Positions 2,484 to 17,728 of a DNA stretch of 19,583 nucleotides are shown piece after piece. The number at the start of each line of letters is the position of its first letter. Within the stretch, counting starts at the first letter, position 1. A program made the position numbers and the translations under genes. The DNA is from Candidatus Dadabacteria bacterium (GTDB lineage Bacteria > Desulfobacterota_D > UBA1144 > Nemesobacterales > CSP1-2), in contig PSLL01000008.1 of the NCBI GenBank assembly GCA_040289575.1, positions 22,887-42,469 on the forward strand. Reading direction: 5' to 3'. The notes under the pieces are model-generated. The model ran no database searches. It worked only from the letters and a program-made list of their open reading frames with translations, and was not told where the DNA came from.

Positions 2484-2499
2484 TGGCACAGATATTGCA
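2484..2499 (+). promoter_or_regulatory. Sigma54 (RpoN) -24/-12 promoter
   Basis: TGGCAC-AGATA-TTGCA matches the TGGCAC-N5-TTGCW consensus exactly. It is intergenic, correctly oriented and about 50 bp upstream of the GTG at 2548. Confidence 0.85.
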
Positions 2500-2547
2500 A
2501 ATAACAAAGCAGGAAAAATTATATATCAAAACCCAGGGAGCTAGGGT

Positions 2548-2922
2548 GTGAGTACTAAGGGTATTCTAGATAATGAATCCAATCTGTTTAAGGTATGCCT
2601 CTACATTTTAACGGTAATCGTTATCATAACTGGGATCTTAAAGCTGACTTTACCACAAACAGTCTTGCAGAAGCCCTTAAGCCCGGTCTTATCTCCCTAT
2701 AGTTATAATTCAATTCGGCAGAAGTACCTTCTTAAAAAAGAGGATTCCATTAGAAAAGTTTTAAAAGAGGCTTCTGAGCTCTATTCGGCAATTCTTGGAT
2801 ATTTGACTTCTCCTCTTATTACGAACTTATACTGGGAATCGCTCATTAATATAGGAAAGCCACTTCATTATACCTTCTTTTTCGCTTTACCTCACCACAG
2901 ATCACCGCCTATTTTTAGTTGA
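2548..2922 (+). CDS. Membrane-anchored leader protein with a C-terminal RSPP (RAPP-like) motif; putative ribosome-arrest uORF
   Basis: RBS AGGGAG at 2535-2540, 7 nt before the GTG. N-terminal hydrophobic segment VCLYILTVIVIITGILKLTL. C-terminus FFFALPHHRSPPIFS*, with RSPP encoded at 2899-2910, three codons before the stop. Confidence 0.65.
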   Translation: MSTKGILDNESNLFKVCLYILTVIVIITGILKLTLPQTVLQKPLSPVLSPYSYNSIRQKYLLKKEDSIRKVLKEASELYSAILGYLTSPLITNLYWESLINIGKPLHYTFFFALPHHRSPPIFS

Positions 2923-3006
2923 ATCTCCTTAGTTTAGCTATTACCACTCTAGAAAAACTAATCCGCCCTGTTTCTTGTCATATTCAGGACAGAGTTAGTT
3001 TGGCAA

Positions 3007-3025
3007 TTTCCCTTGGGAAGGGAGG
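3007..3025 (+). promoter_or_regulatory. Hairpin that can sequester the sulfotransferase Shine-Dalgarno sequence
   Basis: tttccctt (3007-3014) pairs with aagggagg (3018-3025), giving 6 Watson-Crick plus 2 G-U pairs and a 3-nt loop. The 3' arm includes the GGAGG RBS (3021-3025) of the ATG at 3032. Confidence 0.45.
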
Positions 3026-3031
3026 AAATAA

Positions 3032-3997
3032 ATGGAAATACAGAGAGTAAATACACTAAATGAAAAGCACAGGTATTTAGGTGCGGGACGTCATGTACCC
3101 AACTTCTTCATAGTGGGTGCTGCAAAGTCTGGTACAACGTCGCTTTATCACTACCTTAAACAACACCCTGAGATCTATATGAGTCCTGTAAAAGAACCAA
3201 AGTACTTTCTTGCATCTATAAACAAATTCCCTCACAATGGACCTGGCGACATTGAGGTTGATAAAAAAATTATTAGAACATGGGATGAGTACTTAAAACT
3301 TTTTAGCAATGCCTCTGTCGAAAAATGCATCGGAGAGGCTTCTTGTGGTTACCTTTATTACTGTGAACTTGTTGCACCATCAATAAAACGCATCAGCCCT
3401 GAGGCAAAGATAATTATAGTTTTAAGAAATCCCGTAGAAAGGGCCTTTTCTGCGTATTGTTATCTTTTTAGGGAAGGTAGAGAAACCCTCAGCTTTGAGG
3501 AAGCCCTGAAGATTGAAGAAGAGAGGAAAAAAAGGAATTATGAATTTATATGGTTTTATAAAGACCTTGGTTTTTATTATTGTGGGGTTAAAGCTTATCT
3601 TAATACATTTGGTGAAGAAAATGTAAAGATATGCTTATATGATGATTTCAAGCGAAACCCTCTTGGAGTTATAAAGGACATCTTTAGATTTCTTGGAGTA
3701 GATGAAAACTTTGTTCCGGACATATCTATAAAACATAATGTCTCGCAAATAGCTAAAAATAAATCTTTTCAGAACCTTCTTTTAGATTACAATCATCCTC
3801 TAAAGAAGCTGTTTCGCTCCCTCTTATTGAATGCAGTGGGCAAAGAAAATACTGAGAAGTTGGTTAATTATTTTAGGAATGTGAATTCAGTAAAGATGAA
3901 ACCAAAGACAAGAAGATATTTAGCCGAGTTTTACAGGGATGACATCTTAATGTTACAGAGTCTAATAAGGCGAGACCTCTCGGATTGGCTAAAATAG
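3032..3997 (+). CDS. PAPS-dependent sulfotransferase family protein
   Basis: 5'-phosphosulfate-binding loop PNFFIVGAAKSGTTSLYHYLKQHPEI, KEPKYF, GEASCGY, the 3'-phosphate-binding motif KIIIVLRNPVERAFSAY, and IFRFLGVD. Strong GGAGG RBS. Confidence 0.95.
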   Translation: MEIQRVNTLNEKHRYLGAGRHVPNFFIVGAAKSGTTSLYHYLKQHPEIYMSPVKEPKYFLASINKFPHNGPGDIEVDKKIIRTWDEYLKLFSNASVEKCIGEASCGYLYYCELVAPSIKRISPEAKIIIVLRNPVERAFSAYCYLFREGRETLSFEEALKIEEERKKRNYEFIWFYKDLGFYYCGVKAYLNTFGEENVKICLYDDFKRNPLGVIKDIFRFLGVDENFVPDISIKHNVSQIAKNKSFQNLLLDYNHPLKKLFRSLLLNAVGKENTEKLVNYFRNVNSVKMKPKTRRYLAEFYRDDILMLQSLIRRDLSDWLK

Positions 3998-4032
3998 AAT
4001 CTTGTATTGAGAATATCATCACCTGTTGGTGA

Positions 4033-6615
<2,583 letters not shown>

Positions 6616-8417: not shown

Positions 8418-9191
8418 ATGAATTTTAAAGATGACATACACGTTGCACTTCCGTGGTATATCATGGAGAAGTACTTTAGTCTTGCGTACTCAACGGGGCT
8501 CAATCTGGAATTTGGGCTAAGCAGTGATGTATTAGACCGCCTTGAATTTAAGGAGGTCGAGAGAGTAGGAGAACTAATGAAAAATAAGGGACTAACCTGT
8601 ACACTCCACGCCCCTTTTTTGGATCTCTCCTCCGGCGCGCTTGATTTAAAGGTCCTTGACATTACAAGGCTCAGATTCAAACAGGCTATGGATGTAGCCA
8701 ACATTCTAAGGCCAAGATGCATTGTGTTTCATACCGGATTCGACACACACCACTATGGTGGATATGTAGAACATTGGGTTCGGAAGTGTATCGAGACATG
8801 GAAATTGGTGATGGATTATGCGGAAAAGTTTGAGTTAAAAATAGCCATAGAAAATGTCTTTGACACTAACCCCGGTGTACTAAAGAAGATAATCTCTTCT
8901 ATTCCTCATCCACTTTTGGGAGTTTGCCTCGATGCGGGTCATATAAATGTCTTTTCCCGAGTCTCTATCGAGGAGTGGTTTGATGAACTAGGGGATAAGA
9001 TTTTCGAGACGCACCTTCACGACAATAACGGTAAGTACGATGAGCACATCGGGATTGGTGCTGGCACATTTGATTTTCAAAAGTTCTTTAAACTCCTCTG
9101 GAGAGATAGCACACGACCCCTTCTTACAATTGAGGCATCTAATCCAAATTCGGTAAAAGAGAGTATGGATTATTTAATCAACCTAAAATAA
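8418..9191 (+). CDS. Sugar-phosphate isomerase/epimerase / AP-endonuclease-2-like TIM-barrel metalloprotein
   Basis: Metal-ligand motifs LHAPF.DL, VFHTG, IAIENV, CLDAGH, HLHDNNG..DEHIGIGAG and LTIE. The stop overlaps the next start (TAATG at 9189-9193). Confidence 0.9.
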   Translation: MNFKDDIHVALPWYIMEKYFSLAYSTGLNLEFGLSSDVLDRLEFKEVERVGELMKNKGLTCTLHAPFLDLSSGALDLKVLDITRLRFKQAMDVANILRPRCIVFHTGFDTHHYGGYVEHWVRKCIETWKLVMDYAEKFELKIAIENVFDTNPGVLKKIISSIPHPLLGVCLDAGHINVFSRVSIEEWFDELGDKIFETHLHDNNGKYDEHIGIGAGTFDFQKFFKLLWRDSTRPLLTIEASNPNSVKESMDYLINLK

Positions 9192-10768
9192 TGGCTAAAG
9201 GGCATAGGGTCTGTTTCATTAATCCCGCTTTTCCAGAATCGCTTTGGAGCTTTCATGGTATCACTTCACTCATAGGAAAAAAAGGGGCTTTTGCACCGCT
9301 GGGGATTGCGACCATAGCCGCCTGCACCCCCCCTGATTTCGAGATCGAGATCTACGATGAAGAGATTGAATCCATCAATTTTGATACAGATGCCGACATT
9401 ATTGCCCTTACTGCTTTTAATGTCCAAGCAGTAAGGGCTTTTGAGATTGCAAGAGGGTTTAAGAAGCGCGGGAAGTTGGTCTGTATGGGCGGGCCATACG
9501 CGAGTCTCTGCCCTGAAAAATGTAAACCGCACGTGGATGTTCTATTTGAAGGGGAAGGAGAGCTTATATGGGGTGAGTTTTTAGCCGATTATAAAGCGGG
9601 GAATCATAAAAGCTACTACAAGCAGAGGAAGAAGATTTCAATGTCCTCTTCTCCTTTGCCGAGATTTGATCTGTTAAAGGTGGGAGATTATTTTGAGTTC
9701 CCAGTTCAAACAAGCCGAGGATGCCCGTTTACATGTGAGTTCTGCGATATTATCGTCACGGATGGAAGGGTCCCAAGAGCTAAGTCGGTTGATCAGGTTT
9801 TGGTGGAGATAGATAAGCTCTATGAGCTTGGCGTCGGCTCGGTTGTATTTACAGATGCCAACTTTATAGGTAACCCGAAATATACAAAGCTGTTGCTTGA
9901 GGCGCTTGTAAGATTTGGTAAAGAACGCGGTTTCCCAATTAGCTTTGCATGTGAGGCGACGATAAATTTGGCGACAAATGAAAAAGAAGAGATTCTAGGC
10001 TTAATGCAGGAGGCGAACTTCGACCGCGTGTTTGTGGGTGTAGAGTCTCCTAGAAGATCCAGCCTCATAGAGACAAAGAAGCTTGTAAACACGCGCGGGT
10101 CTTTGGTGGACAATATTAGAAAGATTCAGTCTTATGGTATGTACGTTGCTGCGGGTATGATTGTGGGTTTCGACAGCGATGATAAGGGGATATTTCAGGA
10201 GCAGTTTGATTTCTTAACGGAGGCAGGAATACCGTTTACTACCGTAGGCACATTAGTCGCTTTGGAAAATACGCCTCTTTATGAAAGGCTGAAGAGAGAA
10301 GGGCGTCTAGTTGATGATTATACATACGAGAACTTTCGGGGTCATGGAACAAGTGATACGAATTTCATTCCCAAACAGATGACTCTTGAGGAACTCCAGC
10401 GTGGATACAACTGGCTTATCCGCGCTCTTTATGCGTACGATAGCTACTCCAAACGACTTTTGACATGGATAGACAACTTTTCTAAAAACGGAGATGGACA
10501 CAAGCGCATACAGAGTAGGCCCTTTCCAAATAGATTCTTGAGAATAATAAAAAACGTGCTTTGGTATTATCTAATTACCAGAGACAAAAAGCGGCGGCAA
10601 TTTTTTATATCAACTATACTTAAGGCACTTAAGGGCGGATTAAATCCTCAGAGGTTAGAAGGTGCTTTGCATCTCATTGTTCTACACAAACACTTTCATG
10701 GGTATGTTGCGAAAGCCCACGGAGACCCGGAGTCAGCGGGTCATCTCTCTCCGTATTCGTCTAATTAG
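9191..10768 (+). CDS. Cobalamin-binding radical SAM protein (class B; HpnP-like architecture with DUF4070-like C-terminus)
   Basis: N-terminal INP.FPESLWSF...PLGIATIAA and the B12-binding-type MGGPYASLCPE...GEGE. SRGCPFTCEFCDI gives CxxxCxxC. Also DANFIGN, VFVGVES and GMIVGFDSD. Confidence 0.92.
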   Translation: MAKGHRVCFINPAFPESLWSFHGITSLIGKKGAFAPLGIATIAACTPPDFEIEIYDEEIESINFDTDADIIALTAFNVQAVRAFEIARGFKKRGKLVCMGGPYASLCPEKCKPHVDVLFEGEGELIWGEFLADYKAGNHKSYYKQRKKISMSSSPLPRFDLLKVGDYFEFPVQTSRGCPFTCEFCDIIVTDGRVPRAKSVDQVLVEIDKLYELGVGSVVFTDANFIGNPKYTKLLLEALVRFGKERGFPISFACEATINLATNEKEEILGLMQEANFDRVFVGVESPRRSSLIETKKLVNTRGSLVDNIRKIQSYGMYVAAGMIVGFDSDDKGIFQEQFDFLTEAGIPFTTVGTLVALENTPLYERLKREGRLVDDYTYENFRGHGTSDTNFIPKQMTLEELQRGYNWLIRALYAYDSYSKRLLTWIDNFSKNGDGHKRIQSRPFPNRFLRIIKNVLWYYLITRDKKRRQFFISTILKALKGGLNPQRLEGALHLIVLHKHFHGYVAKAHGDPESAGHLSPYSSN

Positions 10769-10855
10769 GTTTGAATCTAAGACAATCTATTCCATTGGAC
10801 AGTGCTATGGTAAATAATGACGGGGCGAGTAAGAAAGTATAAAGAGGAGAGAGGC

Positions 10856-12447
10856 ATGTACAACATATTCAATGTCCCCCACAATAGTGCTATCAGCTCT
10901 TTTGCTAGTGCCATGTCACAGGCGCTTTGTCATCTGGATAAAGACGGCAGGATGACAGCAGAGGATGTTTGTATACTCCGTCAAGCAGTTGCCAATATAC
11001 CGAATGAACTTCGGCTTAACGGTGTGATTGAGATTAACACATGCCTCGAGCCGTTTGAATCACTGCCTGTTGAGGCTCAACACGCCATTTTACGGGCTAT
11101 CATAGACGATGAGCGATGGCGTATGGCTGGCTACGAGTTGTGTAGATGGTACTTTGCTATAGCCAGAATCCTGCAAACGCTTTACCTTAGGCTGCTTCAA
11201 TACAGGCTTAACCGTATGGCGGATTTTATCCATCTACTTGCCGATGGAGCACGTAAGGGACCCAGATGGATGTTATATGCGATATATAGGCTACAGTTGG
11301 AATGGAATGGAAAGTTCTATAGACGCCCAACACTAAAAGCCGTGTTGGGTATCTCTGGAATCAAACCCTGGAACCTTGCCGTGTGCTATGCCCGGCGTAT
11401 TCCACAGGCTGTGAGGTATCGTGGATTTTGGCATGATTCGTCACTTCATAATACCATCGGTGTGGTGCTCGGCATTGATCTTATTCCTACACCTGAGGGG
11501 TGCTGGTATGTTGAAAGTAACCTTAATTGTGCTCTAAGGCCTGAGCGCACGGCGCTATACAACCTCGACCCGTTCGTATCAAATCTTCTCGATTTCGTAA
11601 AGGGGTATGGTTACCGTCATCTAGTTGTGATGGCTGGCAATTTGCAACGTGTAGACAAATTGATGACCAAACGGTATGAGGAGAGGGTGCTGTTGCTCGA
11701 GGGATCAAACTGAGTATTATAGAAGACATCTATTTACCAAAGTTACATTACACACAAAGTTTTGGTATTCCGCCATTGCATAATGACAGTACACTTGTAG
11801 TTCGCATCAAATTCTACCATACCAACCTTGATTATCTGTTTAATCACAAATGGACTAGCATCCAAGCACTTGAGACTTACAAAAAACGCTCATCCGATCT
11901 AGCATTGCTGCTGCCGGCCACTGGTCCTGAGCCTGTGTTGGGCGACATTTACCCCGACGATCCATTCCCAAATCTGGTCTATAAGCTCCCCGATTTAGAT
12001 GAGGGTAAGGGTGTGGCTTTTCTCAAGGTTAGTTCCGCTGAGCACGCCCGTACAGTTCTCAAGGAATCCTTACACCTGAATCATCGGCGGAAATTATTGT
12101 GGAATTGCTACTTAATCAAGGAACAGAAAGGGCTTTTTCAGTCATACATAAGATCACAATTATTATCCGGTCGCAGGCTGTACATTATACGAGTCCATGT
12201 GTTGATCACACCAATTGGTATTAAGTTTCTTTCCGCGCACCGCGTTGTTTCGGAACGAGCGGTGCCAGAGTATCTGCCGCTCGGTGTAGTACAAAATCCA
12301 TTACCCTATATAGTGAACTACTCAGTAGGTTCAAAGTATGAGGTTGTTCCACCTGAAGAGGAACTAGCGGTGGAGACAGCCGCGCTGGCTATTGCAAGGG
12401 GTCTTGCTTGGGCTGCTACATACGGTTTCCAAACCATGACTGTTTAG
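10856..12447 (+). pseudogene. Single gene of about 530 aa for a circularly permuted ATP-grasp ligase, split by one frameshift near 11680-11690 (genuine mutation or sequencing error)
   Basis: The ATG at 10856 has a strong RBS (GAGGAG/GAGG). The frame of ORF 11776..12447 is open from 11680 and reads on seamlessly (...RYEE/GAVARGIKLSIIEDIYLPKLHYTQSFGIPPLHNDSTLVVRIK). ATP-grasp motifs are split between the two ORFs: GIDLIP...WYVESN in the first; NHK, VYKLPDLDEGKGV, FQSYI, IIRVHVLIT and IVNYS in the second. Confidence 0.75.
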
Positions 12448-12737
12448 ATAAAGAAGACAAAATAGACAAAATCTACGGGAAGATGAACGTTATTCTCGAA
12501 GACTTGTGACTGATTTTTGATACCGGATTTAATAGATATATCTAAAAAGAGAAGCGAATTTATAACGTTCTTAGAAAAATTCACTACTCTTTATGGTTGT
12601 AAAAGATCCCTTAATAATACTTTAGAATGGCCTCAGAACTCGACTAAGGTCTAATGGATATTTTAAAAAATGAAATATAAGATACTATGTGGGGTCTATA
12701 ATTTATAAAATCCCGATTAATAATTTCCTTTATCAAA

Positions 12738-14315
12738 ATGAGTCTTATATCCAACATAAGAAAAGGTAGTAGATTACTTTTTGGTCTTAAAGATTATTTA
12801 AAAGATAATCTATCCCTTGAGGAGAGCAGGGAAATAATCAGAAGTAGAATAGAAAGCAGGGAAGAATTATTTCTAAATATTTTGAAAAAAGGGGTTTATG
12901 AGAACATAAACAGTCCCTATTTAAAACTCTTAAAACTCGCCCGGATTGAGTTTAATGATGTTAAATCTATGGTACTAAGAGTTGGTATTGAGGAGACATT
13001 AAAAAATTTAAGGGACGAGGGTGCTTATTTAACCCATCAAGAATTTAAGTGCATAAAGGGAGTAGTTCGTAATGGAAGGGAGTTTAGATTTTATGAAAAG
13101 GACTTTAATAACCCATACTTGTCTACTTATTATGAAGTAGAAAGTGGTGGCAGCAGAAGTGCAGGAACCAGAACTATGATTGACCTAGATTTCCTGCAAT
13201 CCATAGCCGCTTATGATTCTATTGCATTTAATGCCGCTGATGCAATGAGGTATCCATTGGCTCTTTGGACTCCTATACTACCCTCTAATCTTGGAATATC
13301 TTGTTTATTTAGATTTGCGAAAATCGGAAAGGTGCCGGATAGATGGTTTTCTCAGATTGGGAAAGGGTTCATAAAAACGTCCTCTGTAAATAAGCTTGGA
13401 ACTAACTGTATGGTTTATATCACTAGGTTGTTGGGGATGGATTTTCCAAAACCCGAGTATGTTGGCTTAAGGGATTCTTATAAGATAGCCGATTGGGCAG
13501 CACAGATGGTTAAAGATTTCTCAGGCTGTAGTATATATACATACGTTAGCTCTGCTGTAAGAGTCTGTAAGACGGCAAAGGAAAGAGGCTTGGAAATAAA
13601 CGGAACTAAATTCTTTGTTGGTGCGGAGCCAATTACCCCTTATAAGCGAAAGGAGATCGAGTCGGTGGGTGCCGTCTGTGTTCCGAAATATGGCTTTACA
13701 GAAGGAGGAACTATTGGATACGGTTGTTTTAATTCCTCTTCTCCCGATGACACTCACCTTTTTAAAGACTCTATAGCAGTGATTCAGCACAGAAGGAGAG
13801 TAGAATTTAGCGATACGGAGGTTAATGCGTTTTTGTTTACCTCTCTTCTGCCTTCGGCGCCCAAAATACTCCTAAACGTGGAATCAGATGACTATGGCAT
13901 CTTAGAGAAGAGGGATTGCAACTGTGATTTTCAGAAGCTGGGTTTTACGGAACATCTCCATGAAATAAGGAGCTTCGGCAAGCTAACCAGTGAGGGGATG
14001 ACCTTTGTTAATAGCGATTTAATACGGATCTTTGAGGAGATCCTTCCCCAGGAGTTTGGGGGGAGCTCTATTGATTATCAACTCGTAGAAGAAGACGGTA
14101 ATGGATTGACTCGACTAAGCATCCTCGTTAGCCCACAAATCGGTGAGGTCAACGAGAAGGACTTAGTGGAAAGGTTTTTAGCAGAGATAGATAAAAAGAA
14201 ACGAGGGATTTGTGTCGAAATGTGGTCTCAGGGAAATACGATTCAGGTAAAACGCGCGCATCCCATTCCGACGAAAAGAGGGAAAATTTTTCCCTTCTAT
14301 ATCGGTATGAAATAG
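12738..14315 (+). CDS. Divergent phenylacetate-CoA ligase/CapK-like adenylate-forming protein
   Basis: P-loop variant ESGGSRSAG, GAEPITPYKRKEIE, YGFTEGGTIGYGC, LLNVESDDYG..EKRDCNC, DYQLVEE and a C-terminal TKRGK (A10-type Lys). Confidence 0.75.
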   Translation: MSLISNIRKGSRLLFGLKDYLKDNLSLEESREIIRSRIESREELFLNILKKGVYENINSPYLKLLKLARIEFNDVKSMVLRVGIEETLKNLRDEGAYLTHQEFKCIKGVVRNGREFRFYEKDFNNPYLSTYYEVESGGSRSAGTRTMIDLDFLQSIAAYDSIAFNAADAMRYPLALWTPILPSNLGISCLFRFAKIGKVPDRWFSQIGKGFIKTSSVNKLGTNCMVYITRLLGMDFPKPEYVGLRDSYKIADWAAQMVKDFSGCSIYTYVSSAVRVCKTAKERGLEINGTKFFVGAEPITPYKRKEIESVGAVCVPKYGFTEGGTIGYGCFNSSSPDDTHLFKDSIAVIQHRRRVEFSDTEVNAFLFTSLLPSAPKILLNVESDDYGILEKRDCNCDFQKLGFTEHLHEIRSFGKLTSEGMTFVNSDLIRIFEEILPQEFGGSSIDYQLVEEDGNGLTRLSILVSPQIGEVNEKDLVERFLAEIDKKKRGICVEMWSQGNTIQVKRAHPIPTKRGKIFPFYIGMK

Positions 14316-14405
14316 ATTATATATTATGCAAAATCGATGTTGTGTATTGGTAAAGCTAGGTATAAAGATCAAGTTGATATTTAATAGACCGGTGATCTAG
14401 ATAAA

Positions 14406-15158
14406 ATGAAAAAAGCAATTGTCATTGGGTGCATGTTTGCGGCCTAGGAGTAATAAGATCATTAGGGCTAAAGGATTTTCAAATAATAGCCATGTCCTAT
14501 GACGAAACAGATTTTAGTCAAATTTCTAAACACGTTTATGAAAGGGTTAAAATTCCGCATCCATGTATAGAAGAGAAGAAGTTTATTGACTTTCTAATTA
14601 GGAATTCTTATAGGTGGAATGAGGCATTTCTCTTCAGAAAAATAAGGCAAAATCCTCCGAAATTTGGAGTGGCAAGGGTTGGAATTAGCCAAGATAGAAT
14701 TCCTCAAATAATAGAGGAGTTTACCGAAAGAATATTAAAAGAGGCCAATTTTAAGGGGATTGCTAACGCTGAGTTCAAAAAATACCCTAGGGATAACCAA
14801 TTCAAGCTGCTGGAAATTAATGTGAGGGCATTCAGATCAAACTGGCTCGCGACATATTGTGGTATAAATTTCCCGTGGATTATCTATATGGATCTGGTTG
14901 AAAAAAACAAGTAAAAATAATAGATTACAAAAAAGATGTGTACTGGATAGAGCTATATCAAGATATATTGAATTCAGTTTTTCGTCATAGTAAAGAGAAT
15001 CTGGGGTTTAGAGACTACATTAAGCCTTACATGTCGAGAGATAAAACCTTTGCCGACGTGTCTGGAGATGATCTTATGGTATTTTAAAGCGAATCATTAT
15101 CTTACCAATTAAGTATTACAGGTTTTTTAAGTCTATTATGATAAGGCAATATGAATGA
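14406..15158 (+). pseudogene. Decayed ATP-grasp carboxylate-amine ligase (D-aspartate ligase-like) with frameshifts and a large internal deletion
   Basis: The ATG at 14406 gives MKKAIVIG, which shifts near 14430 to HVCGLGVIRSLG. The N-terminal domain (...EKKFIDFLIRN..RWNEA) is joined directly to the C-terminal RKIRQNPPKFGVAR...GIANAEFK..PRDNQFKLLEINVR...GINFPWIIY. A shift at the A7 run (14901-14907) leads into QVKIIDYKKDVYWIE...YIKPY...DDLM, and a probable third shift lies near 15083. The central KP and QE.I motifs are absent. Confidence 0.85.
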
Positions 15159-15230
15159 CATATAAAGCCGATAAAGATATAATTTAGCGAACTTAGAAAG
15201 AGTAAGACAGGTTATAGGGGCCCTCTAAAG

Positions 15231-16361
15231 TTGAAGAAAAAAATATTAATGCTAAATTACGAGTTCCCCCCTATTGGCGGCGGTGCAGCCATAGCAAACT
15301 ACTATTTATTAAGAGAACTTAGAGATAGTCCTGATTTAGAAATAGATTTACTTACATCCAGTGCTAACAACAAATTCGAGGTTGAACAATTTTCTGATAA
15401 CATAAGAATATTTAAATTAGACGTTTGTAAGAGGAGTCCACATTATTGGACAATGTCCGAGATTATAAGGTGGACTTGGAAGGCTTATTGGTTTTCTAGA
15501 AAGTTAATCAATAAAAACAAATATGACTTATGCCATTGCTGGTCTGGATGGCCTCCGGGGATAATTGGCTACTTATTTAGAAGGAAGGTGCCTTATATTA
15601 TTGCCTTACGTGGTTCTGATGTCCCCGGCTATAATCCAAGGTTAAAGATTTTAGATAAACTCATTTTTGGATTTATCTCTAGAATAATCTGGAAAGATGC
15701 CAAAGTAGTTACCGCTCTAAGTAGGAATTTGAAAAAATTAGCCTGGAAAACCTCCGATAAAGTAAATATCGAGGTTATCTACAACGGTGTAGATACTGAT
15801 AAATTTAAACCTGTAATAAATAAATCCGACTTTGGTATAGATATCCTTTTCGTAGGGCGTCTAATCGGGCGAAAAGGGATAGTAAATTTATTAAAAGCCT
15901 TTAAAGAGGTGCGTGATGAATATAAAAACTGCAAATTAACCATAGTTGGAGGGGGGCCTAAAAAGAAGTATTTGGAGGACTTCTGTAGGCGGGAAAAGGT
16001 AGAGTCGAGTGTAGAATTTTTAGGGGCGGTTAAATATAAAGATATTGATAAGATATATGAAAAAGCCAGTATTTTCGTTTTGCCCTCTCTTGAAGAATCA
16101 TTGAGTAATGTGATTCAGGAAGCAATGGCCTCTGGGTTGCCGATAATAACAACGGATACTGGTGCGGCTGAATTAATGGATGAAAACGGTTTTATAGTTG
16201 AAAAAGGCAATTATAATCAGATTAAAAAAGCGATAATAGAATATATTGGTAATACTGAGTTGATGAGAAAGCATGGTATACAATCTAGAAAAATAGCTGA
16301 GAAGATGAGTTGGAGTAATACGGCTAAGGCGTACATTGAAATTTACCATTCTGTAAGATGA
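15231..16361 (+). CDS. Glycosyltransferase family 4 (GT-B fold)
   Basis: Motifs ILMLNYEFPPIGGGA, GSDVPG, VIYNGVDTDKFKP, ILFVGRLIGRKG, IVGGGP and FVLPSLEESLSNVIQEAMASGLPIITTD (Ex7E motif). Confidence 0.95.
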   Translation: MKKKILMLNYEFPPIGGGAAIANYYLLRELRDSPDLEIDLLTSSANNKFEVEQFSDNIRIFKLDVCKRSPHYWTMSEIIRWTWKAYWFSRKLINKNKYDLCHCWSGWPPGIIGYLFRRKVPYIIALRGSDVPGYNPRLKILDKLIFGFISRIIWKDAKVVTALSRNLKKLAWKTSDKVNIEVIYNGVDTDKFKPVINKSDFGIDILFVGRLIGRKGIVNLLKAFKEVRDEYKNCKLTIVGGGPKKKYLEDFCRREKVESSVEFLGAVKYKDIDKIYEKASIFVLPSLEESLSNVIQEAMASGLPIITTDTGAAELMDENGFIVEKGNYNQIKKAIIEYIGNTELMRKHGIQSRKIAEKMSWSNTAKAYIEIYHSVR

Positions 16362-16453
16362 GACTGATAAATCCATGACTGTAGCTTTCTAATAGTTGAG
16401 CAAAGATAGAATAAAAGCATTAGCGAAAGAAATCTAAAAATAGAAGAGATATA

Positions 16454-17728
16454 GTGATTAAAAACTCTCTATTCCTGGTATCAGAATTTCTTCGCCTTGA
16501 AAGGGAGCAGTGGCTTCCAGGGGACCAGATTGAGGAACTACAGTGGCAGAGATTGAAGAAGATTTTAAAGCACGCTTATGACAACACTGAATTTTACAAA
16601 AAAAAGTTCAAAGATATCGGGCTCACACCCGATGATATAAGAGAGAGAAAGGATATAGAAAAAATTCCTTTTACAACAAGAGAGGATTTGAGAAGTCCAG
16701 AGAGACTAATAGCCAAGGGGTTTGATAAGAACAAAATGTATTTTTCTATTACCTCTGGCTCTACTGGTAGAAGAACAACCGCCTATTTTGATAGAAAATC
16801 TTGGTTAATAGGAAAATTTTTACTAAAGCTTAGGGCGCGGATTGCATGTGGCTTAAAGCCTTCAGACAGAATAGCCGTTTTCAGTGAGGGAAAGGTACAT
16901 AATAGTTTCTTCAACGAGTTTTTCTTAAGGCAGAGGTTTTTTCCTATCTCGGATCCAATCGAAGAGCATCTTTCGGAAATAGAAAGATATAATCCGTCAG
17001 CAATGTATGGTTTCCCGTCTTATTTCTCACTCCTTGCTGATATGAAAACAGATAAAATAAACCCTTATCGTATTTTTACTTCCTCAGAGATGCTAGACCT
17101 AAAAACGAGGGAAAAAATTGGAGGCTCTTTTAAAACCGAATTGTTCGATACATACGGTTGCACCGAGGTAAAAGAAATTGCGTGGGAGTGCCAAGAGCAT
17201 AATGGGTATCACATAAACGATGACTGGTTACTGGTTGAGTTTATAAAGGATGAGAAAGCTGTTATAGAAGAGGAGGGTTCGATTATTGTTACATCGCTTT
17301 ATAATTATGGGATGCCTCTTATAAGATACGAATTGGGTGATACAGGGAAATTGCTCGAAGGAAGATGTCGCTGTGGCAGAGGGTTGCCCCTTATGGCCCC
17401 AGCCCTAGGGAGGAGCGTTGACTACTTTATCCTGCCGGACAATTCAATGATTTCACCTTATGCTATGACCTGTGCCATAGAGAATGTCGAGGGGATGAAA
17501 CAATATCAAATTATTCAAGAAGAAAAAAGCCTTGTGATAGTAAATATCATTCCAAACAACCAGTTTAGTGAGGAAAGCAAACAAAGTATTAAATCCGCTT
17601 TGGAACAGGTTCTCCCCAGTACAGCAGTTCATATAAACCTAGTTGAAGAAATTAAAAGAGAAAAAAACAGAAAGTATAGAATAGTTATTTCAAAAGTACA
17701 AAATGCAAGGTCCGGTCTATTTGAGTAA
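16454..17728 (+). CDS. Phenylacetate-CoA ligase family / CapK-like adenylate-forming protein
   Basis: Motifs QWQRLKKILKHAY...FY, IPFTTREDL, P-loop TSGSTG, GFPSY, YGCTE..EIAWEC, TSLYNYGMPLIRYELGD, CRCGRGLP, GRSVD and QYQIIQ. Confidence 0.9.
   Translation: MIKNSLFLVSEFLRLEREQWLPGDQIEELQWQRLKKILKHAYDNTEFYKKKFKDIGLTPDDIRERKDIEKIPFTTREDLRSPERLIAKGFDKNKMYFSITSGSTGRRTTAYFDRKSWLIGKFLLKLRARIACGLKPSDRIAVFSEGKVHNSFFNEFFLRQRFFPISDPIEEHLSEIERYNPSAMYGFPSYFSLLADMKTDKINPYRIFTSSEMLDLKTREKIGGSFKTELFDTYGCTEVKEIAWECQEHNGYHINDDWLLVEFIKDEKAVIEEEGSIIVTSLYNYGMPLIRYELGDTGKLLEGRCRCGRGLPLMAPALGRSVDYFILPDNSMISPYAMTCAIENVEGMKQYQIIQEEKSLVIVNIIPNNQFSEESKQSIKSALEQVLPSTAVHINLVEEIKREKNRKYRIVISKVQNARSGLFE

Follow-up and report, generated by a model that had tools for sequence, protein, structure and literature searches.

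What is a short, membrane-anchored open reading frame (ORF) that ends in Arg-Ser-Pro-Pro (RSPP) and three further residues doing directly upstream of a sulfotransferase gene? The question is raised by a 19,583-nucleotide stretch of DNA, here called the window, from Candidatus Dadabacteria bacterium (GenBank assembly GCA_040289575.1, contig PSLL01000008.1, positions 22,887 to 42,469), in which a first-pass annotation had proposed a sigma54-driven arrest-peptide leader that could couple glycan or envelope sulfation to membrane-insertion status. Here we show that the leader ORF and its RSPP motif are real and under selection, and that they belong to a previously unnamed and lineage-restricted family which, judging from its substitution patterns, is selected as a peptide, and as RNA too. 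The window leader is a genuine member of this family, which on balance probably functions as a stall-dependent anti-Shine-Dalgarno (anti-SD) switch, here moved in front of a sulfotransferase. Comparison of related loci indicates that the sulfotransferase pairing is a local, recent rearrangement and not the normal role of the leader family.

Throughout, G000 denotes the source genome (a 3.06-Mb assembly that includes the window), G001 the genome that bears the orthologous locus, and G002 a genome of the same genus; f1, f2, and f8 are genome families within the phylum, L-numbers are individual loci, among them related loci collected using an alignment of the partner protein described below as query, and C-numbers are contigs of the source genome. 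The elements of the window on which the argument turns are as follows.

2535..2540, forward strand: AGGGAG, the Shine-Dalgarno (SD) site of the leader, 7 nt upstream of its GTG start, identified by sequence reading and conserved in G001
2548..2922, forward strand: leader ORF of 124 codons with a GTG start, ending HHRSPPIFS before the stop, a member of the family defined by an N-terminal transmembrane (TM) segment and a terminal RSPP
2584..2640, forward strand: codons of the single N-terminal hydrophobic, signal-anchor-like segment (residues 13-31, mean Kyte-Doolittle hydrophobicity 2.56)
2899..2910, forward strand: AGA TCA CCG CCT, encoding Arg-Ser-Pro-Pro, the candidate arrest motif, followed by three codons and TGA
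2923..3031, forward strand: spacer of 109 nt from the leader to the sulfotransferase
3032..3997, forward strand: sulfotransferase of the 3'-phosphoadenosine-5'-phosphosulfate (PAPS) type, 321 aa, assigned from Pfam and PDB matches

The length of the leader ORF, its good ribosome-binding site, its one N-terminal hydrophobic helix (scored as the best 19-residue Kyte-Doolittle window), and its HHRSPPIFS end all agree with what the first-pass annotation had reported. The ORF has no Pfam or NCBIfam match, and a word-indexed search returned one homologue, 73% identical and ending HHRSPPIFI. Six-frame searches revealed two paralogues in G000 and members in 11 of 61 related genomes, and with an improved profile the leader was detected in 19 of 120 genomes from across the phylum. 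These are concentrated in f1 (9 of 14, plus G000) and f2 (8 of 33), with 1 of 37 in f8 and none among the 35 genomes of six further families. When 1.84 billion cluster representatives were searched with a profile, only 49 matched at E ≤0.001, and in 46 of these RSPP falls within the final 14 residues. Related contigs are labelled as Candidatus Dadabacteria, Deltaproteobacteria, or Thermodesulfobacteriota metagenome-assembled genomes, and the family comes from soil; labels of Spirochaetia and Ignavibacteriales were taken as bin mislabels.

Pooling of profile hits and genome loci, followed by de-duplication, yielded 75 distinct sequences. RSPP lies no more than 12 residues from the stop in 72 of these, with exactly three residues after it in 53, and the three exceptions are a truncated fragment, a copy interrupted by an insertion sequence (IS), and one RSPF. 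Conservation of RSPP among homologues, on which the first-pass annotation had made its proposal depend, is in this way borne out, as is the combination of a TM segment and RSPP that it had recognised as the architecture of a regulatory upstream ORF. A hydrophobic segment (Kyte-Doolittle ≥1.6, starting in the first 60 residues) is present at the N-terminus of 41 of 45 representatives, and 72 of the 75 members maintain an open frame of ~115-175 codons. An alignment of 18 leader sequences, with 35% mean column identity and 20-36% pairwise identity to the window ORF (orthologue apart), contains five invariant columns: one TM leucine and the R, S, P, and P of the motif. It contains no conserved Cys or His column, CxxC included, consistent with the earlier remark that the window leader carries no CxxC.

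Codon usage within the motif points to selection on the peptide and on the nucleotides alike. Variation of the RSPP codons is confined to third positions (AGA/AGG, all four TCN, and all four CCN); Arg is always AGR and Ser always TCN (28/28 members), and CCT encodes Pro1 in 21 and Pro2 in 16 of these 28 members, compared to 28% in the long ORFs of G000. Since the sequences are related, these counts are not independent. Ratios of nonsynonymous to synonymous substitution rates (dN/dS) among leader paralogues range from 0.34 to 0.52.

What the motif codons may do as RNA is suggested by the loci at which a leader precedes a conserved partner protein of ~200 aa, which we term canonical. Their motif codons, ...UCC CCU CCU UUA..., are complementary to the Shine-Dalgarno sequence. 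In ensemble folds spanning the ORF end to the downstream start, the downstream SD pairs with the end of the leader ORF at a probability (P) of at least 0.87 in 13 of 14 distinct canonical loci. When the 33-nt leader end was swapped for the ends of 40 ordinary G000 ORFs, mean P fell to 0.06-0.42, and at most 2 of the 40 ends reached the observed value. Among 10 loci with non-canonical targets, P was at least 0.96 in seven, and 0.68, 0.49, and 0.00 in the others. Anchored pair counts over 25 loci further indicate covariation: the Pro2 wobble base can pair with the nucleotide just 5' of GGAGG in 22 (U-A in 13, U-G in 2, and G-C in 7), CCG Pro2 codons face C in seven of nine cases, and in 16 the wobble base of Ser is matched by the nucleotide just 3' of the SD core, as C-G in f1 and as A-U in f2. 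RNAalifold returned no structure from a MAFFT alignment of 14 intergenic regions in which the SDs were unaligned, and duplex energies compared with mononucleotide shuffles of the ORF end were uninformative, shuffled pyrimidine-rich ends pairing with SDs too. With the covarying anti-SD helix in its support, an arrest leader is the best available reading at the level of the family, as suggested by sequence comparison and predicted folds.

If this reading is correct, the two Pro codons would occupy the P and A sites of the stalled ribosome, by analogy with the structures described for RAPP-type arrest peptides. The Pro codons (CCU CCN) and their neighbours would double as the anti-SD strand, sequestering the next gene's SD in a long-range helix, and a ribosome stalled on that strand would free the SD, allowing the downstream gene to be translated. 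The most likely release signal would be a pull generated by membrane insertion or export of the N-terminally anchored chain; after release, termination would follow three codons later and the helix would re-form. Two hairpins also recur in the canonical spacers of 136-159 nt (e.g. L005 1366-1524, L006 1885-2033, and L017): one reads GUCCGUUxA...ACGGAC, and the other, which is long, ends ...GAUCGGUUAAA immediately before the SD. These hairpins may form a structured RNA domain enclosed by the predicted anti-SD/SD helix.

The first-pass annotation had suggested listing the genes downstream of related leaders, and this list comprises the ~200-aa partner, a small exported protein, a ketoacyl synthase, a cupredoxin, and the sulfotransferase. 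Among the first 18 members, the partner lies 136-159 nt downstream in 11, with a twelfth assigned via a near-identical locus; the remainder precede the sulfotransferase (two members, in the window and in G001), a ketoacyl synthase (one), a small exported protein (one), or genes that could not be read (two). The ketoacyl synthase pairing was seen in two f2 genomes. The usual downstream gene in f2 encodes the small exported protein and is followed by one for a TfoX_N protein, and one f1 copy of the leader precedes a cupredoxin gene. The view that leader and sulfotransferase form a system of their own does not withstand this comparison, given that the pairing occurs at 2 of 19 sulfotransferase loci and other members precede other genes.

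Four of the eight canonical loci with enough flanking sequence (L028, L034, L038, and C65) share the order leader, partner, small protein, and HtrA-type protease (Trypsin_2 plus PDZ domains); L028 and L034 are syntenic and are therefore not independent. A fifth canonical locus, L025, has an M48 peptidase in the place of HtrA. Frequent neighbours are genes for cation transporters or their regulators, namely P-type ATPases, VIT1, NRAMP with a DtxR-like repressor, and TerC. The gene context of leader, partner, and HtrA points to a sensor of envelope or secretion status.

The partner itself has no Pfam or NCBIfam match. Its AlphaFold model is all-helical (mean predicted local distance difference test score, pLDDT, 78.6) and matches nothing in the PDB at E ≤0.001 using Foldseek, and the ESM Atlas returned unnamed clusters only, at 0.83. 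Kinship with zinc peptidases was considered and rejected: the top VIA-align Z of 6.6 involves helical parts and falls under the helical noise level, and the partner contains no HExxH. Two small proteins recur at these loci. One is an exported protein of ~100 aa that belongs to no Pfam family, follows the leader or the partner gene in f1 and f2, and has the pattern GKV..I....L.L....GK...V.A...L.G...GD.V.V...NG.A.SI.K (examples at L076 5541-5903, L038 5668-5994, L012 1895-2182, and L093 1787-2107). The other, with the pattern ...LKEEAE..SWLLGEEL..., occupies the same position in L028 and L106 and is also found at L002 3065-3259.

How, then, does the window locus compare with the canonical arrangement? 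The downstream gene is a sulfotransferase, as the first-pass annotation had stated: ORF 3032-3997 scores above curated cut-offs for Sulfotransfer_3 (4e-18; 66.8 bits, cut-off 27) and Sulfotransfer_1 (3.5e-15; 56.5 bits, cut-off 22), and matches PDB entry 3rnl 'Sulfotransferase' at 1.8e-75. Among 19 loci carrying sulfotransferase homologues in 15 f1 genomes, the two with the leader and the sigma54 site described below are those of G000 and G001. The same two proteins share an N-terminal extension (residues 1-21) that is absent in six other homologues; PNFF, the start of the segment conserved across homologues, begins 22 residues after the start of the window protein and 3-12 residues after the start in the other six. 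The SD, start, and first codons of the window gene (GGAAATAAATGGAAATAC) match partner-gene starts at 17 of 18 nt (E = 0.33), a likeness which offers a hint of a recombination junction, short of evidence. A second sulfotransferase paralogue in G000 (contig C20 84120-85004, locus L069) is 35% identical and contains an in-frame TGA.

The window locus also differs from other members in its promoter. The remaining features of the transcription unit are the following.

2484..2499, forward strand: sigma54-type promoter TGGCACAGATATTGCA (-24 element TGGCAC, -12 element TTGCA), an exact consensus
near 2509-2511, forward strand: unmapped transcription start, inferred from the position of the sigma54 promoter
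2840..2990, forward strand: C-rich, G-poor tract that covers the end of the ORF and reaches 68 nt into the spacer, identified by base composition
3008..3024, forward strand: local 7-bp hairpin UUCCCUU-GGG-AAGGGAG, present in the minimum free energy (MFE) and centroid structures
4018..4033, forward strand: terminator-like hairpin and T-run closing the two-gene unit

The consensus sigma54 promoter of the first-pass annotation was found as described. No other sequence in the window matches TGGCAC-N5-TTGCW exactly (200 dinucleotide-preserving shuffles give an expectation of 0.01), and none does so when one mismatch is tolerated; the 3.06-Mb genome contains 13 exact sites, with ~2.4 expected by base-composition arithmetic. 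Both promoter elements are unchanged in the G001 orthologue (TGGCACAGCTATTGCT), the upstream flank having diverged in the pairwise alignment, apart from a conserved short block at ~2440-2456, ~30-45 nt upstream of the -24 element. G000 carries an rpoN gene and at least 12 Sigma54_activat domains, the nearest of which lies on contig C28, ~47 kb past the end of the window. Of 17 other family members checked, the G001 orthologue has the exact site, L012 has a site with one mismatch, and the rest have at least three mismatches or no site. Sigma54 control is thus not a family feature, because the exact site is limited to the window copy and G001.

The gap between the two genes had been described as structured and 109 nt long. 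Its length stands, and the claim of structure is rejected because MFE values match chance when z-scores are computed against dinucleotide shuffles (z = +0.16 for 2923-3045 and +0.56 for 2890-3045). No terminator-like site was called within the spacer (2923-3031), and no Rfam family reached its gathering score anywhere in the window. The C/G ratio is 3.29 in both 2840-2917 and 2860-2937 and 2.38 in 2880-2990, and a rho gene is present in G000; judged by composition only, the tract at 2840-2990 is a possible Rho loading region. The next gene (4033-5211) is convergent to the leader/sulfotransferase unit. Four soil-metagenome DNA runs contain part or all of the window stretch, and no RNA run containing it is listed among public runs.

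Several observations weigh against the reading of a stall-dependent switch, some of them concerning the family as a whole. Thermodynamic models pair any CCUCC with any SD, and the observed covariation may rest on one or two events because the switch in pair type tracks the f1/f2 split. The partner gene has no detectable leader at 20 of 31 loci (one of them not assessable). In the available excerpts of PMC12992588 and PMC10987492, an Ala-to-Ser change, which produces RSPP, retains only partial arrest in ApdA and ApdP. Others concern the window copy. Its anti-SD pairing is weak (P 0.33, and 0.00 in G001), the helix having several G-U pairs and two mismatches, which fall on the wobble base of Pro1 and on the codon after it. 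Of the six bases in the SD of the sulfotransferase (GGGAGG, 3020-3025), five are taken up by the local hairpin at 3008-3024, the SD being paired at a predicted P of 0.9-0.99, and a ribosome stalled ~100 nt upstream would leave this hairpin closed. HH replaces the PL that precedes RSPP in 58 of 72 members, and a comparison with G001 gives a dN/dS of 0.73 at a synonymous rate (dS) of 0.18, which is nearly neutral. Finally, G002 has the same order of CoA-transferase, sulfotransferase, and metX as the window with the leader absent, its intergenic region of 569 nt being unrelated to the window's 932 nt, and in a syntenic metagenome contig, L073, an IS1595 transposase interrupts a 58%-identical leader after its codon 63. 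The leader module is accordingly dispensable at the sulfotransferase locus, given its absence in G002 and its interruption in L073. The IS1595-family (ISXO2-like) transposase gene lies at L073 1495-2277, inside the leader ORF, and the sulfotransferase is absent from this contig despite the same flanking genes.

Several of the window-specific findings would also fit a leader that is a hitch-hiking remnant, a decaying copy that arrived with a promoter-bearing segment and left the sigma54 promoter alone in control of the sulfotransferase. We regard this alternative as somewhat unlikely, though it survives better than the other rivals. The near-neutral dN/dS, the decayed anti-SD helix, the HH substitution, the leaderless and IS-interrupted syntenic sites, and an SD hairpin that forms independently of the leader all speak for it. 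Against it, the ORF is intact in both G000 and G001, with start, SD, TM segment, and RSPPIF tail kept and with two indels (+6 and -3 nt, window versus G001) that preserve the frame. Moreover, the leader dS of 0.18 is lower than the 0.53 of the adjacent sulfotransferase (dN/dS 0.17), which argues for constraint on the nucleotides of the window leader, and a Rho-type C-rich, G-poor tract extends across the candidate stall site.

A second alternative, that the product is a mature bitopic membrane protein whose PLRSPPLFS tail is a binding or recognition motif, for instance for the PDZ domains of HtrA, and not an arrest signal, appears improbable. The HtrA gene in the same gene string at four loci, the overall purifying selection (dN/dS 0.34-0.52), and a tail predicted to face outward if the N-terminus is inside, a topology inferred from K/R residues before the TM segment, would all fit such a protein. 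However, the last residues, which a PDZ domain would read, vary in identity and number (LFS, LFF, LSS, YFTL, YTILYHVQ, PSK, and others) while RSPP is invariant, a protein-binding motif has no need of covariation between wobble bases and the SD, and the leader also precedes genes with no HtrA nearby. The converse proposal of a pure RNA element, an untranslated 5' leader in which the CCUCC box acts only as anti-SD and the ORF is incidental, is very hard to credit: the enrichment of CCT at the Pro codons, the AGR-only Arg and TCN-only Ser codons, which suggest nucleotide constraint, and the low dS of the window copy are in its favour, but 72 of 75 members, at pairwise identities of 20-36%, preserve a frame with a hydrophobic N-terminus, changes in the motif are confined to third codon positions, indel lengths are divisible by three, and dN/dS is below 1.

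The reading that we prefer for the window, a probable arrest leader moved before a sulfotransferase, agrees with the better supported of the two options which the first-pass annotation had itself raised, namely that the original downstream target has been replaced; SD pairing at P 0.33 in the window compares with at least 0.87 in 13 of 14 canonical loci. With a decayed anti-SD helix and a sigma54 promoter that other members lack, the window locus most likely arose by grafting of the leader module onto a new target; the module may have been either inserted in the G000/G001 locus or lost from G002. Any residual control of the sulfotransferase by stalling would be different in kind or weak. Blocking of Rho on the C-rich tract, in the manner of CruR, is possible because both the tract and rho are present. 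The coupling of sulfation to membrane insertion suggested earlier would have to rest on a rearrangement found in two species, in which the canonical switch appears to have decayed.

A broader interpretation can be offered only tentatively, and we doubt it more than we believe it: in Dadabacteria-like soil bacteria, RSPP leaders would form a portable, multi-copy module that senses the handling of its own anchor and tail and switches on an envelope quality-control operon (the ~200-aa protein, the small periplasmic protein, and HtrA), and that has recombined before cytoplasmic enzymes, the sulfotransferase and the ketoacyl synthase being the moved targets. If so, envelope status would be wired to sulfation and lipid synthesis. 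The family-level reading, if true, would provide a natural case of RSPP fixed across 72 members, with multiple paralogues in a genome, a readable RNA switch whose anti-SD strand consists of the stall codons, and a target set (the HtrA operon, the ~200-aa protein, and enzymes) outside the Sec/YidC and metal-homeostasis groups. It would be a compact system for asking how stalling modules move between genes, and whether a monitoring substrate can drive envelope quality control. The window alone offers a sulfotransferase with a sigma54 promoter and a 520-nt, presumably translated leader of uncertain regulatory role.

RSPP is scarce elsewhere in the G000 genome. Among 1,593 long ORFs (≥250 codons), RSPP occurs once (5.2 expected), RGPP is absent (6.2 expected), and RAPP occurs twice (5.4 expected). 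Among 21,459 stop-to-stop frames of at least 50 codons, RSPP occurs 47 times, 11 of which lie no more than 10 residues from the stop, eight of these with exactly three residues after the motif; three of the near-stop frames are members of the leader family. A separate TM leader with a CSAC motif, ending FPRSPPVIL before the stop, is found on contig C47 at 14759-15148 (locus L074 1275-1649), with an ABC-3 permease gene on one side and, on the other, genes for an uncharacterised 443-aa protein, ZnuA, and an ABC ATPase. By its motifs and neighbours, this frame is a CxxC...RSPP leader in a zinc/manganese-type uptake locus; hhalign matched only the five motif columns between it and the leader family, indicating that the two are unrelated elsewhere. 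On the minus strand of contig C104 (6852-7169; L075 about 4353-4670), a frame that contains HSIHH and a hydrophobic segment and has LIRSPPISV before its stop lies upstream of genes for an exported 297-aa protein, CopC, CopD, a Cu/Zn superoxide dismutase, and VKOR. Its candidacy as a second leader is doubtful: no ATG, GTG, or TTG start gives at least 40 codons, so that it may use another start or be spurious.

Further along the window, a same-strand gene string occupies 8418-17728, with a G+C content of 0.30-0.39 from about 12500 to 17000. It encodes, in order, a xylose-isomerase-like TIM barrel protein, a DUF4070-containing, B12-binding radical SAM enzyme, three proteins of 298, 223, and 525 aa that match no Pfam family, a short ATP-grasp fragment of 161 aa, a GT4 glycosyltransferase, and a PaaK/F390-synthetase-like ligase. 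From its gene content, the string looks like an uncharacterised cluster for small-molecule or glycan modification.

The remaining question is where the RSPP leaders stand among known arrest systems, for which we draw on excerpts of the published accounts. RAPP-like motifs are described there as arresting translation jointly with their N-terminal neighbours (PMC12992588, PMC10987492), and the first-pass annotation's assignment of RSPP to this class is in line with its treatment in the same two sources. In these excerpts, screens of random libraries for stalling yielded RxPP with x = G, A, S, or P, RSPP ranks among the most depleted tetrapeptides of proteomes, and RSPP is recorded in homologues of RAPP-bearing upstream ORFs (PMC12992588, PMC10987492). 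The surveys they report drew out RAPP or RGPP small proteins (PMC12992588, PMC10987492), including small secretory or membrane proteins encoded upstream of diverse genes (PMC12992588), a wider class into which the leader family fits. No mention of HtrA or a sulfotransferase was found in the excerpted arrest-peptide literature, the supplementary upstream-ORF lists of PMC10987492 and PMC12992588 lying outside the comparison.

CruR of Bordetella pertussis (Bp2923, DUF2946/PF11162), as excerpted from PMC9426467, carries RAPP three residues before its C-terminus, is followed by an intergenic region of 162 bp, and acts through relief of Rho-dependent termination. The leader family resembles it in having a long intergenic region (109-160 nt), and the window may resemble it further, given that G000 has rho and that a C-rich, G-poor tract surrounds the candidate stall site. 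Unlike CruR, none of 18 leader members matches PF11162 at E ≤1, no CxxC is conserved at a fixed distance from the motif, and the window leader has no copper operon downstream; canonical members, moreover, look like translational (anti-SD) switches, whereas CruR is transcriptional. Escherichia coli SecM-secA, as far as the excerpted descriptions go, would be a mechanistic parallel in that a secretion-dependent chain with a C-terminal R-x-x-P-type arrest exposes the next SD by disrupting a helix, and in that its arrest site, like the candidate site of the leaders, is only a few codons away from the stop. In contrast to the leader family, SecM bears RAGP, shares no homology, and has a translocase component as its target; in the leader family, the Pro-Pro codons themselves would form the anti-SD strand.

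A further likeness is to the ApdA/ApdP/RQH family (Fujiwara et al.), which likewise consists of small proteins with an N-terminal localisation signal and an R-x-P-P a few residues before the stop, kept while the rest diverges, and encoded directly upstream of a presumed target gene. The leader family differs in that its natural motif is RSPP in essentially every member, where the known proteins carry RAPP or RGPP, in the absence of sequence similarity outside the motif, in its multiple copies per genome, and in downstream genes that are not the secA, secDF, or yidC of ApdA/ApdP. Because this anatomy is shared, and the leaders have neither the features of DUF2946 nor Sec/YidC targets, we place the leaders as an unannotated family among RAPP-like arrest leaders; by anatomy, an RSPP type of RAPP-like arrest leader is the best available description of them.

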